IMG/VR virus record: IMGVR_UViG_2597489893_000002
Location: 1 to 30,236 of that record
DNA from: a virus
Taxonomy: Duplodnaviria; Heunggongvirae; Uroviricota; Caudoviricetes
Strand: one strand, 5' to 3'
Length of the DNA stretch: 30,236 nt
Part shown: positions 13,509 to 17,390 of the stretch, one piece after another
Numbering within the stretch: the stretch's first letter is position 1
How the letters are laid out: each line of letters begins with the position of its first letter
Made by a program: the position numbers and the translations under genes
Notes under the pieces: model-generated
What the model was told of the DNA's origin: nothing
The model's input: only the letters and a program-made list of their open reading frames with translations
Databases searched by the model: none

Positions 13509-13584
13509 TGGTGCCGATTAACGGACTCGAACCGCTGACATCCTGCTTACAAGGCAGGCGCTCTACCAACTGAGCTAAACCGGC
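13509..13584 (-). tRNA. tRNA-Thr (anticodon UGU)
   Basis: 76-nt cloverleaf on - strand: acceptor GCCGGTT/AATCGGC, anticodon loop CTTGTAA, T-loop TTCGAGT, CCA end. Confidence 0.88.
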
Positions 13585-14316: not shown

Positions 14317-14344
14317 ATTACACTAATAAATTTATTAGAGCAAT
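14317..14344. promoter_or_regulatory. bipartite palindromic C1-operator-like site overlapping the dmt stop codon
   Basis: 14328-14344 on - strand reads ATTGCTCTAATAAATTT (17/17 to remembered consensus); 14317-14333 on + strand ATTACACTAATAAATTT (15/17). Both share the perfect palindrome ctaataaatttattag. Confidence 0.55.
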
Positions 14345-17217
14345 ATACCCAAAACGTCATGAGCTACACCTCGAGTGTCCCCCTTACAAGACACAGAACG
14401 TCTGGCAAAAAGAGGTTCCACTCTGAAGCCACTGTCATGATAAAGCTCTCTGATGTTTGGCGCGCCACTGTTAGTAATGAGAACCTTTGCACCTCGACGA
14501 TGAGCATCCGTCAACAGAGACACCAGGCGTTTTTGCTCTTCAAACTTAAAGTCATGACCGGAATAGTTCGTGAATCCCTCTGTATTTGGAAGCGGTTCAT
14601 ACGGCGGATCGCAAAAGATGACATCTCCTTCTCCGGCAGCTTCAATCACCGCTGCAAAATCACCGCATACAAACTCAGACCGCCCTTCCGCACCGAGGAA
14701 GGCTTCCATCTCCTGTAATGGGAAATACGGAGTTTTATACTTCCCATAACCGACATTGAACTCACCGGCCTGGTTGTAACGCGTCAATCCGTTAAAACAA
14801 TGTCGGTTCAGGAACAAAAACGCCGCTGCGCGATGTAAATCATCATAGACTTGTTTGTTAAACGCATTCCGTACTGCCAGGTATCCTTCCTGTGTGTTGT
14901 AGTCCTGGAAGAAACGATGTGCCAGAGTGATAAGTGAATGCGCCTCGCGTTGCAGAGTCTTGTAAAAGTTAATCAGGTCAGCATTCACATCATTTAGCAG
15001 ATTTTCCTGGTATCCGGCATTCATGAAGACAGCTCCGCCACCAACGAAAGGTTCAATCAGGCGCTTCCCTTCTGGCAAATAGCGAAAGATTTGTTCCAGA
15101 ACACCAAATTTTCCACCAGCCCATTTGAATATGGACCGTTCGAATTCTGCCGCTGGTTTAACTTTTCGCTCTTTTGTTTCACTTCCTTCTTTCTGCCGAC
15201 ATACGGCCTTAGTAATCCGATCGCCAATCCAGCGCATTACTGGTATTGCCATACTATTGCCGATCGCTTTGTAACGCGGTCCGTCAGCTGCAAGCATCGC
15301 GGCCTCTTCTTCGCTTAAATCAGGATAGTTATTGCGAAGGTATGCCAGTTCATCTGAAGAAACTTTTTTACGCTTTTCCGTAGGGATCAACGTATGCCCA
15401 TCAGGAAAACCTTGCAGCCTTTCACATTCGACAGGGGTAAGACGGCGTATTCTACCGTCGCCGAGCAATACAATTGGTGCTTCATGGTTACATGTTAAAG
15501 TTGGTGCCGAATTATCGGTTTTTATCTCAGCCCCTCCTTGCCCATGTGCCATGGCAACTATGTTTGTATCATCGCAAGATCTGATAGCGATGTTTGAAGT
15601 ATATCTGGTAGTTTCCTTCCCCTCGCCTCTGCTCGGCGCAATATCCCGGCGCACGCCTTCGAACTCAAAAAGTACCGTTGCGGGATCGAGGTCTGTTCGA
15701 GCACTTGCGACAACAAACACGCGTCGGCGTCGTTGTGCCACTCCGAAGTATTGGGCATCAAGGATTCTCCAGGCCACCTTTCGCTGCGGCCCATAAATAC
15801 AACCACACTGCGGCCACTTTGGAGCATGGCAACCGGTTTTGCCATCCCACCGCCAGAACGCGTTACTTTTTCCTGATTCAGGTCGATCACCTGGTTCAAA
15901 TGGCGCATCTTCTCCAGCCAATCCGGCAAGGAAACATCCGAAGGCGTTATCTGCCGATGACAAGACTCCTGGGACATTTTCCCAGACAATAACGGCTGGT
16001 TTGAGAAATGACTCAGCCCGTTTGTCGTCAATTGCATTTGCAAGCTCCACATACTTTAAAGTTAGCGCGCCACGCTCATCATCAAGCCCACCACGTAATC
16101 CCGCGATACTGAATGCCTGACAGTTATGGACCACCGCACCATTGAGGATATAGGAATGATCACCTTCGACTTCTATGTTGTATACAGTATCTAGGCCTAC
16201 CGATTTAAACTCTTTGACTGTTCGTAAAAGCATTCCATGAGCCAATCTTGATTTACGTGACAATTTCTGCGGGCAGATTGTTACCTGATAATAATTCCGT
16301 TGATTTACCACGCGATCCTCGATCACTTTTTTGGGCTCAACTTCAATAAAGCTGACCGAAGAAACATAACCACAAGTCTGTGACAACCCCGCAACGCCCC
16401 AAGCAAGCGCAGGACTAACACTATTAATTCTAAATCCCGCTTTACCACTTGGTGTCCCATCAGTATCAAGATAGCCTTGTAAAAACACATGACGCAATGG
16501 ATGCGACATCACCCATGCAGGGATACGCTTAGCATGGCTTAACTCGCCAAAATGTTCATTAAGCCAATTGGCATAACACGTATCATTCAAGGTTACTTTG
16601 ATGCTCCCTCGGATTTCGCTTGCCACGGAAAATATGTTTTCTGGTATGCGGCAATGAAACTTTCTCAATTTCTGGCAATTTATGCCAAAAACAACCGCCT
16701 TCTTAGATTTACCTCTCCATCTCCTAATATATCCATCGCCAACATAAGCGCCCGCAAGATACATAGCCTGTTCTTCAGACAAGAACCGAGAACAAATATC
16801 TGGAGATGCAATATTGAAATTAGTTAGAGCGCACCATTGATATCCCGGCATATCACATGCTGCTCGCCATTCCGGTTCAGACAACAACTCTCTCTTAAAA
16901 TATGTGCCATTTTTCCGGGTGTTTTGGGCTTTCCACCGAACAGCCAGGAAGGGATGGTCATTGGTTGTTCTTATACCTAAAGGCTGCCCAACGGCATTAA
17001 GTAACCCCGTATTAGCTATTTTTGAACCAACTCTTTTTACTTGTTGTAACCGCCCGAGATGACTGACTACGTAATCGCCAGGGCAAACATCTTCTATTGG
17101 TTTATAACCATTTTTACAAAGAACCATATGCCCCGCGGTAAAACATGGTGTTCCCCCGACGAGCACGTCAGGGGATTCGATTTCCCCAGCCAAGACTTTT
17201 TTGGCAAGTTTTGTCAT
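14335..17217 (-). CDS. dmt: DNA methyltransferase, fused C5-cytosine MTase (intein-containing) plus Dam-type N6-adenine MTase; main ORF lacking motif I
   Basis: After the intein: CQAFSIAG (motif IV with upstream GGTP), ENVPGV (VI), QRRRRVFVV (VIII), RRLTPVECERLQGFPD (IX), KAIGNSMAIPV (X). C-terminal 270 aa is Dam-like (FKWAGGK, EPFVGGGAVF, DPPY). The ORF begins only 24 codons before PC; motif I is in the upstream fragment. Confidence 0.85.
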   Translation of the reverse strand: MTKLAKKVLAGEIESPDVLVGGTPCFTAGHMVLCKNGYKPIEDVCPGDYVVSHLGRLQQVKRVGSKIANTGLLNAVGQPLGIRTTNDHPFLAVRWKAQNTRKNGTYFKRELLSEPEWRAACDMPGYQWCALTNFNIASPDICSRFLSEEQAMYLAGAYVGDGYIRRWRGKSKKAVVFGINCQKLRKFHCRIPENIFSVASEIRGSIKVTLNDTCYANWLNEHFGELSHAKRIPAWVMSHPLRHVFLQGYLDTDGTPSGKAGFRINSVSPALAWGVAGLSQTCGYVSSVSFIEVEPKKVIEDRVVNQRNYYQVTICPQKLSRKSRLAHGMLLRTVKEFKSVGLDTVYNIEVEGDHSYILNGAVVHNCQAFSIAGLRGGLDDERGALTLKYVELANAIDDKRAESFLKPAVIVWENVPGVLSSADNAFGCFLAGLAGEDAPFEPGDRPESGKSNAFWRWDGKTGCHAPKWPQCGCIYGPQRKVAWRILDAQYFGVAQRRRRVFVVASARTDLDPATVLFEFEGVRRDIAPSRGEGKETTRYTSNIAIRSCDDTNIVAMAHGQGGAEIKTDNSAPTLTCNHEAPIVLLGDGRIRRLTPVECERLQGFPDGHTLIPTEKRKKVSSDELAYLRNNYPDLSEEEAAMLAADGPRYKAIGNSMAIPVMRWIGDRITKAVCRQKEGSETKERKVKPAAEFERSIFKWAGGKFGVLEQIFRYLPEGKRLIEPFVGGGAVFMNAGYQENLLNDVNADLINFYKTLQREAHSLITLAHRFFQDYNTQEGYLAVRNAFNKQVYDDLHRAAAFLFLNRHCFNGLTRYNQAGEFNVGYGKYKTPYFPLQEMEAFLGAEGRSEFVCGDFAAVIEAAGEGDVIFCDPPYEPLPNTEGFTNYSGHDFKFEEQKRLVSLLTDAHRRGAKVLITNSGAPNIRELYHDSGFRVEPLFARRSVSCKGDTRGVAHDVLGILL
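16123..17145 (-). other. intein with LAGLIDADG homing-endonuclease domain, 341 aa, in frame within dmt
   Basis: Starts with Cys (CFTAGHMVL, block A), block B IRTTNDHPFL, two LAGLIDADG motifs (YLAGAYVGDGY, FLQGYLDTDGT), block F/G VYNIEVEGDHSYILNGAVVHN followed by Cys+1. Removal restores GGTP-CQAFSIAG. Confidence 0.85.
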
Positions 17218-17227
17218 TTCGCCCCGC

Positions 17228-17255
17228 GGGGGGGGGGGGGGGGGGCGGGGGGGGG
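17228..17255. repeat. G18-C-G9 homopolymer tract interrupting the dmt coding sequence
   Basis: Read directly from the sequence. On the coding strand it is a C-run that would encode poly-Pro. Frames on either side are offset so motif I and motif IV are not in one frame. Confidence 0.95.
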
Positions 17256-17390
17256 CCAGCGGAGCGCAAGAACGGCCGATGGAAAAGGCTCGATTTCAGC
17301 AAACCAAACCGGACGCATACCCAACGGTTCCCAGGCAATACTCGCGGCTTCAATTCCACTGCAAACAGATCCATAGCACAGCTCTTTCAC
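17256..17390 (-). CDS. dmt: 5-prime fragment of dmt carrying C5-MTase motif I
   Basis: GTG start overlapping the RdgC-homologue stop (GTGA). Translation [45 protein letters not shown] matches the motif I region of a C5-MTase subfamily as remembered; the frame is lost in the poly-G tract. Confidence 0.6.

Follow-up and report, generated by a model that had tools for sequence, protein, structure and literature searches.

The stretch of DNA analysed here, IMG/VR virus record IMGVR_UViG_2597489893_000002 (30,236 nt; hereafter the window), belongs to a P1-type phage and carries on its minus strand the gene dmt, which encodes a C5-cytosine DNA methyltransferase (C5-MTase) fused to a Dam-type adenine methyltransferase. 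The cytosine half of dmt holds an exact in-frame insert of 1023 nt (341 codons) between Pro77 and the catalytic cysteine of C5-MTase motif IV. An earlier note on this DNA had placed a 341-residue intein at positions 16123-17145; these coordinates proved exact, with the minus strand as the coding strand, so that the observation was confirmed, and the interpretation as an intein was supported by the analyses described below.

The host gene was recognised by the C5 motifs I, IV, VI, VIII, IX and X, which are followed by a D12-class Dam domain. Pfam assigned a C5 DNA_methylase domain and a Dam domain (MethyltransfD12, residues 699-931) to the open reading frame (ORF), and the NCBIfam models TIGR00571 (dam) and TIGR00675 (dcm) matched as well. 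The gene order uhr-hrdC-dmt-tRNA(Asn, Thr) is the same as annotated in P1, RCS47 and OP279344.1, the window is colinear with Escherichia phage P1 OP279344.1, and the GTG start of dmt at 17390 overlaps the hrdC stop codon as in P1. The parts of the gene are as follows:

17146-17390, minus strand: N-extein of dmt, with C5-MTase motifs I to IV up to Pro77, interrupted by a poly-C patch.
16123-17145, minus strand: very probable intein of 341 codons (38.3 kDa, isoelectric point (pI) 9.35), delimited by a clean indel and recognised by family models and an AlphaFold2 model.
16120-16122, minus strand: Cys+1, the first C-extein residue and the catalytic cysteine of C5-MTase motif IV (PCQ).
14335-16119, minus strand: remainder of the C-extein, with C5-MTase motifs IV (from its Gln) to X and the Dam-type domain, ending in the stop codon.
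15958-15984, minus strand: ENVPG, within the C5-MTase part of the C-extein.
About 15445-15633, minus strand: variant target-recognition region between C5-MTase motifs VIII and IX.
About 14425-15123, minus strand: Dam-type N6-adenine methyltransferase domain (Pfam MethyltransfD12, TIGR00571 dam).

The listed ORF (14335-17217, 960 aa) reads MTKLAKKVLAGEIESPDVLVGGTP, then the 341 residues CFTAGHMVL...ILNGAVVHN, then CQAFSIAGLRGG..., with the junctions ...SPDVLVGGTP↓CFTAGHMVL...ILNGAVVHN↓CQAFSIAG (arrows mark the ends of the insert). The codons of Cys1 and Asn341, the first and last residues of the insert, lie at 17143-17145 and 16123-16125. In the family profile, the N-extein part aligns with residues 13-81 of M.HhaI and ends at the Pro-Cys motif of that enzyme.

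Within the insert, a Hint splicing domain (residues 1 to about 107 and about 285 to 341) encloses a LAGLIDADG endonuclease domain (about 110-285). Each hallmark named in the earlier note, from block A to the cysteine at +1, was found in its place. Conservation was judged in an alignment with 13 homologues of 53% down to 24% identity (A3):

17107-17145, minus strand: block A (N1) CFTAGHMVLCKNG with the nucleophile Cys1; C1, F2, A4, G5 and G13 invariant.
16945-16977, minus strand: block B (N3) GIRTTNDHPFL with the TxxH motif (T61-N-D-H64); T61 and H64 invariant.
16732-16764, minus strand: LAGLIDADG motif 1, MYLAGAYVGDG, with the putative catalytic Asp137; G132 and G138 invariant.
16456-16488, minus strand: LAGLIDADG motif 2, VFLQGYLDTDG, with the putative catalytic Asp229; G224 and G230 invariant.
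16123-16185, minus strand: blocks F and G, VYNIEVEGDHSYILNGAVVHN, with penultimate His340 and terminal Asn341, followed by Cys; TIGR01443 covers residues 321-341.

In blocks F and G of the same alignment V321, N323, V326, V339 and N341 are invariant, and His340 is usual but not fixed, being replaced by Asn, Lys or Ala in some homologues. Cys+1 is nearly invariant, as are Asp137 and Asp229 (one Glu and one Asn). Asp137 is invariant in two further alignments, one of nine sequences (A4) and a closer one (A5), and in A5 so is Asp229.

Family models and structure comparison lead to the same assignment. In the insert, Pfam Hint_2 reached 28.7 bits (cut-off 28.4) and LAGLIDADG_3 31.3 bits (cut-off 22.5), Intein_splicing remained below its threshold (18.3 against 35.8), and the NCBIfam model intein_Cterm (TIGR01443) scored 25.9-28.9 bits against a cut-off of 15.6. 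A search of the PDB with the single sequence gave weak intein matches (best E value 0.0014), including one of the intein C-terminus to that of the Spl DnaX mini-intein; profile and fold searches were required. With the family alignment as query the PDB profile search found PI-PkoII (1.6e-12), PI-SceI (1.4e-11) and also mini-inteins, the matches ranging from 1e-12 to 1e-4. An AlphaFold2 model of the 341 residues had a predicted local distance difference test (pLDDT) score of 92.8 and a predicted template modelling (pTM) score of 0.89. The 16 top Foldseek matches of this model (E values 9e-17 to 4e-9) are all full-length LAGLIDADG inteins, among them PI-SceI (9e-17), TliVMA, PhoVMA, PI-PfuI and PI-PkoII, and the free-standing endonucleases I-DmoI and I-SceI rank after them. 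The insertion is thus in frame and colinear, with block A, TxxH, blocks F and G, Cys+1 and a Hint fold as in class-1 inteins, and its two motifs with conserved acidic residues and its predicted double-domain fold are those of a LAGLIDADG (DOD-type) endonuclease. Because the sequence, profile and fold evidence agree throughout, we regard the insert with high confidence as a canonical class-1 intein with a nested LAGLIDADG homing endonuclease, which has invaded a P1-type dmt between Pro and the catalytic Cys.

We also considered a bacterial intein-like (BIL) domain. BIL domains are Hint domains devoid of a nested endonuclease, usually have no +1 nucleophile, and occur in variable regions of secreted or otherwise non-conserved proteins. 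This assignment was rejected on account of the nested LAGLIDADG domain, Cys+1 and the seat of the insert in an enzyme's most conserved motif; in the profile search, the match to the BIL structure 2lwy is confined to the N-terminal Hint part of the insert.

Alignment of Dmt proteins with and without the insert showed a clean indel, visible as a gap of 341 columns in reference P1:

Reference P1 (AF234172): Dmt of 754 aa, insert absent (...VLVWGTP↓CQAFSIAG...).
RCS47: Dmt of 1095 aa, insert present at the same point.
OP279344.1: Dmt of 1013 aa, insert present at the same point.

In each of the 30 P1-like loci compared, the insert is either wholly absent or exactly 1023 nt long. As the earlier note had claimed, removal of the insert recreates the canonical motif: it gives VLVGGTPCQAFSIAG, as in 21 of the 22 intein-less P1-like alleles, with GGTPCQAFSIAG as the ligated motif IV. 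Reference P1 is the remaining allele and has Trp for the first Gly. The statement of the note that no intein occurs in reference P1 dmt was thus correct, and P7 and others lack the segment too. The sequenced reference P1 (AF234172) has this Trp at codon 73 (VLVWGTPCQ), where the 21 other intein-less and all intein-bearing alleles have Gly; it may be a laboratory mutation that inactivated the C5 activity of that strain.

The distribution of the intein was determined with a query consisting of the intein and 200-nt flanks, records matching the flanks serving as denominators. The intein is present in 126 of 497 flank-matching plasmid records of PLSDB, in 152 of the 492 complete E. coli genomes (from 5426) that match the flanks, and in 8 of 27 P1-like loci in IMG/VR. 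A phage collection yielded 18 flank-matching records (about 11 distinct genomes), five of which carry it (three distinct). Its frequency in P1-like elements is therefore about 25-31%, or a quarter to a third. The 497 plasmid records stem from Escherichia (454), Salmonella (33), Klebsiella (8) and Shigella (2), and among the intein-bearing ones listed the hosts are Escherichia, Salmonella and Shigella. Carriers among phages are RCS47, Ro157c2YLVW and P1vir OP279344.1; P7 and reference P1 are free of the intein. The clean indel bears out the suggestion of an allele-specific invasion insofar as the insert is polymorphic; it is not confined to one allele, as the frequencies and its presence in a laboratory P1vir show.

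The record OP279344.1 represents the working P1vir stock of a laboratory; its assembly rests on Illumina reads, with Sanger sequencing used for closure (PMC10250240). The presence of the intein in this stock indicates that an intein-bearing dmt is compatible with a vigorous lytic phage. This P1vir, from which res and mod are deleted, differs from reference P1 in carrying an intein-bearing dmt with a short target-recognition domain (TRD), so that laboratory P1 lineages are not uniform at dmt. The intein is not annotated in any of the P1-like records examined, which call the product 'Dmt', 'DNA methyltransferase' or 'Dam family ... methyltransferase'. Our literature search retrieved no description of an intein in P1, in P1-like elements or in dmt, and the only methylase inteins that it turned up were those of actinophages. 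The intein is hence new for P1-type phages and uncharacterised there, and is of a known kind with a large family.

Searches with the intein alone returned relatives only in C5 methyltransferases and at the same insertion point: in Mannheimia haemolytica and its phage 587AP2 (47-48% identity), Metarhizobium album (48%), metagenomic proteins (about 50%), actinobacteria (about 30%) and a Deferribacteres metagenome-assembled genome (26%). A search of proteins from phage genomes added Propionibacterium phage B22, Lactobacillus phage Nyseid and the jumbo coliphages A4, ph0011, UE-S1 and TH47, all with ...P↓C...HN↓CQ... junctions. The view that inteins are rare in enterobacterial phages therefore holds only in part, the same site being occupied in other phages including jumbo coliphages. 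Among 1.84 billion cluster representatives there were 192 matches at E <= 1e-30 and 1619 at E <= 1e-10. The best 150 representatives comprised 138 full-length matches, with Pro at -1 in 126 (91%) and CQ at +1/+2 in about 119. This sequence evidence places the intein in a large family that is directed at the PCQ motif of C5 methyltransferases. For a scan of one-genome-per-species data A4 was too diverse, and the closer A5 was used; it detected four loci only, so that the family is sporadic at the species level, though large in metagenomes.

The P↓CQ-site inteins of 587AP2, Metarhizobium album, B22, Nyseid, the Asteriusvirus jumbo coliphages and metagenomes share the insertion point, the CF[TP]AG...VVHN↓CQ blocks and the architecture with the dmt intein at 27-57% identity. 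They reside in other methyltransferase lineages and hosts, whereas the P1-type copy sits in a fused C5 and Dam enzyme. In the records of these relatives that were examined no intein is annotated, the names being 'DNA methyltransferase', 'Hint domain-containing protein' and 'DOD-type homing endonuclease'. In a 2025 preprint on inteins of actinophages, C-5 DNA methylase is named as one of the host proteins from which inteins had been reported before (10.1101/2025.01.02.630785); these inteins, known here by the name of the host protein alone, may belong to the P↓CQ group.

Two side observations concern the family. In Mannheimia phage vB_MhS_587AP2 (1264-3584) the related intein is followed directly by a break in its C5-MTase gene, the C-extein being annotated as a separate coding sequence, and a free-standing HNH homing endonuclease gene follows as a second selfish element at the same locus. 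Distant members occur in Parvibaculum indicum (29% identity; junction ...FHPP↓C...HN↓CTRLCNSG) and in a metagenomic HNH-domain protein (23%), hosts with no precomputed Pfam match to a C5-MTase, from which it appears that the family has occasionally jumped to other sites.

Among characterised inteins, PI-SceI (yeast VMA1) and the archaeal PI-PfuI, PI-PkoII and TliVMA are the best fold matches (template modelling scores about 0.55-0.62; profile matches 1e-12 to 1e-10). They have the same two-domain architecture, the Cys1, TxxH, HN and Cys+1 signatures and two LAGLIDADG motifs. The identity to them is 10-16%, the dmt intein, known here from sequence and model, is smaller (341 compared with 454-537 aa), and its host is a DNA methyltransferase of an enterobacterial phage-plasmid. 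The DNA methylase inteins DNMT-1/2 of cluster E/F mycobacteriophages are likewise of the LAGLIDADG type; they are patchily distributed, and there is evidence that they have been transferred horizontally (Kelley et al. 2016, PMC5050341; PMC9957025). They too reside in phage DNA methyltransferases and show about 27% identity to the dmt intein over the full length, but their host is an N6/N4 methyltransferase (PF01555) rather than a C5 enzyme with a PCQ motif, and the site in phage Dante is ...NVQMHV↓C...VKN↓CPLQFD.

From these features we propose that dmt is translated as a single precursor, of 1013 aa and 112.7 kDa for the intact allele of OP279344.1, which is otherwise identical to that of the window. 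Following the class-1 route, an N-S acyl shift at Cys1 and trans-thioesterification to Cys+1 would be followed by cyclisation of Asn341, which would free the intein, and an S-N shift would restore ...GGTPCQAFSIAG.... The expected products are a bifunctional C5/Dam methyltransferase of 672 aa (74.5 kDa) with the predicted ligated junction peptide ...VGGTPCQAFSIAGLR / ...DVLVGGTPCQAFSIAGLR, and a free basic endonuclease of 38.3 kDa (pI 9.35). The length of about 660-680 aa foreseen for the spliced protein agrees with the 672 aa predicted for the intact allele; for the window as given the product would have 619 aa and be devoid of motif I. In the proposed reaction the catalytic cysteine of the methyltransferase itself would act as the +1 nucleophile, which implies that the C5 half must be inactive until splicing, and the Dam half, as a later part of the same polypeptide, might function in the unspliced precursor. 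The endonuclease would cut the intein-less dmt of P1/P7-type elements that share the cell during co-infection or superinfection of a plasmid lysogen, and repair from the intein-bearing copy would convert the cut allele, carrying along a short flank.

Splicing, cleavage specificity and ongoing homing are what we infer from sequence data; for homing, the support lies in population signatures, namely the low diversity of the intein, a divergence peak at the junction, a linked site at -1 and the occurrence in several TRD backgrounds. Depending on the analysis, 8 to 11 intein-bearing alleles were compared. Their inteins differ at no more than 6 of 1023 sites (nucleotide diversity 0.0045), and no stop codon interrupts the intein in the 10 alleles compared for this. 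In the same genomes diversity amounts to 0.03-0.08 in the N-extein and to 0.011-0.015 in the first 300 nt of the C-extein, which makes the intein 7-18 times less diverse than the adjacent N-extein. The divergence of intein-bearing from intein-less alleles is highest, at 0.16, in the 21 nt immediately upstream of the junction.

The synonymous site of the Pro codon at -1 (17146-17148, minus strand) is fully linked to the intein: all 10 intein-bearing alleles read CCA↓TGT and all 22 intein-less P1-like alleles CCT↓TGT. No intein-bearing junction with a base other than A at this site was found in IMG/VR. The six intein-less ...CCA↓TGTCAGGCATTC junctions in that database all belong to distant homologues at 66-70% identity, not to P1-like elements, and a search of IMG/VR for precise intein loss, that is for a P1-like intein-less allele with CCA at -1, found none. 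The natural intein-less junctions are GGT ACG CCT↓TGT CAG and GGA ACA CCT↓TGT CAG; the P1/P7 type corresponds to GGTACGCCT↓TGTCAGGCATTC and the second type to GGAACACCT↓TGTCAGGCATTC. Two intein-bearing alleles have a second near-junction haplotype (G..G..A..G at -16 to -7), and the presence of two such haplotypes is consistent with co-conversion from different donors.

The intein was found together with C-exteins of 542, 595, 677, 682 and 730 aa, which contain different target-recognition modules, and two of these types (595 and 677 aa) are found in intein-less alleles as well. P1-like loci fall into at least six classes of C-extein length, a diversity that suggests an exchange of cytosine-methylation specificities. 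The window and OP279344.1 share a module in the target-recognition region that is different from, and 82 aa shorter than, that of reference P1 and RCS47. Low intein diversity together with multiple specificity-domain variants points to recent horizontal spread, and the sequence data as a whole indicate that transfer was recent and site-directed, a short flank being co-converted.

Several points weigh against a splicing and mobile intein. Proline at -1 is unfavourable to the first acyl shift and blocks this step in several engineered inteins. It is nonetheless typical of the P↓CQ family. In the window as given, dmt is frameshifted upstream of the intein, and the literature searched contained no experimental evidence of splicing or cleavage. 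Furthermore, dmt was non-essential in a P1 CRISPRi screen (PMC10695390), hence selection for splicing may be weak; the target is conserved owing to the motif and not to a need of the phage for dmt. The population data, too, could be read differently: the present intein-less alleles could be immune, the perfect T/A association at -1 meaning that surviving intein-less alleles resist cleavage and that homing has stopped. Finally, about 11 distinct non-synonymous changes compare with roughly 7 synonymous ones (the latter not de-duplicated), numbers too small to demonstrate that the endonuclease is under purifying selection. Estimates of dN/dS were limited to such simple counts, P1-like alleles differing at no more than six sites and relatives at 50% identity being saturated.

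The alternative that survives best, unlikely as we consider it, is an intein that still splices while its endonuclease is dead or finds no cleavable targets, so that vertical inheritance and ordinary homologous recombination between P1-like plasmids are now the element's only routes of spread. All P1-like intein-less alleles differ from the intein-bearing ones at -1 and most also at -4 and -7, changes that could be immunising; the ratio of non-synonymous to synonymous changes is not clearly below the neutral expectation; and P1-like elements are highly mosaic anyway, as illustrated by the window and OP279344.1. However, both LAGLIDADG aspartates and the motif glycines have been kept across homologues at 23-52% identity, and the 7- to 18-fold lower diversity of the intein relative to the N-extein, with a peak centred on the junction, fits site-directed transfer with co-conversion better than random recombination.

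It is considerably less probable that the insert never splices, in which case the C5 half would be permanently disrupted and dmt would encode effectively a Dam-only enzyme with a dead N-terminal region. Besides Pro at -1, the dispensability of dmt would fit this, as would the annotation note by which only the Dam activity of P1 Dmt is established and the broken C-extein behind the related intein of 587AP2. Against it, the splice-site residues are all intact and conserved, motifs I, IV, VI, VIII, IX and X are intact with an open frame in essentially all intein-bearing alleles, and the same P↓CQ site is occupied in more than 100 diverged host genes, which would be unexpected if the invasion killed the gene. 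An assembly chimera or other artefact of the window, to which an artefact-like patch nearby might point, is practically excluded, since more than 100 plasmids finished independently of one another and several phage genomes (one of them Sanger gap-closed) have the same 1023-nt insert at the same position.

That patch accounts for the frameshift of dmt in the window:

17218-17255, both strands: patch of poly-G (plus strand) or poly-C (minus strand), with 9 substitutions and 14 extra nt, which frameshifts dmt.

On the plus strand it reads G18-C-G9 and is the sole long homopolymer run of the window. Translation from the GTG at 17390 gives 46 normal codons ending in ...LALRWP, then PPAPPPPPRGAK and a stop; the listed 960-aa ORF begins at an internal Met, and the patch puts motif I out of frame. 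If it were real, the copy in the window would yield a C5-dead enzyme even after splicing. The patch was found neither in IMG/VR nor in any listed plasmid or E. coli match, and the listed plasmid and E. coli genome matches span 1409 rather than 1423 nt, that is, they do not contain it. Between about 11 and 27 kb the window is identical to OP279344.1 save for the patch, and in the regions 1-11 kb and 27-30 kb it diverges by about 1.5%, a mosaic pattern. Since the patch is unique and lies inside a 16-kb block identical to OP279344.1, we treated it as an artefact; it is probably one of sequencing or assembly, such as the poly-G of two-colour chemistry. A natural phase-variable poly-C tract was rejected, as no other P1-like sequence checked has the patch and it sits in 16 kb of otherwise perfect identity.

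The preferred reading, a splicing and homing intein, allows a more speculative extension, which we put forward with considerable reserve. Splicing might act as a redox- or temperature-sensitive gate of cytosine versus adenine methylation in P1 development, an idea suggested by the identity of Cys+1 with the catalytic nucleophile and by the position of the Dam half downstream in the same chain; in addition or instead, the endonuclease might serve as a weapon against intein-less P1/P7-type plasmid prophages. In the latter case it would tip the balance of survival between the elements of a co-infected cell.

E. coli genetics relies on P1 as its standard transducing phage, and resistance genes often travel on P1-like phage-plasmids. 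An intein that is apparently active and that annotation has missed is present in about a quarter to a third of these elements, as well as in at least one P1vir stock used in the laboratory. The presence or absence of the intein explains size differences of dmt between P1 genomes, and the long allele should not be called a fusion or an error. As a textbook intein it holds little surprise for the specialist; its use lies in being common, naturally polymorphic and unannotated in the best-known transducing phage of E. coli. It offers a natural pair of intein and homing endonuclease in a highly tractable host, with donor and recipient alleles coexisting in nature, and the availability of both a lytic and a plasmid lifestyle makes homing, co-conversion and the homing cycle directly measurable. 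If its members splice, the family uses Pro at -1 and the catalytic Cys of the enzyme as the +1 nucleophile, which is relevant to intein engineering.

A plus-strand ORF inside the intein (16552-16827) has no family match in NCBIfam or PHROGs and was taken as spurious. Downstream of dmt, three tRNA genes are located as annotated in P1:

13587-13662, minus strand: tRNA-Asn.
13509-13584, minus strand: tRNA-Thr.
11792-11867, minus strand: tRNA-Met.

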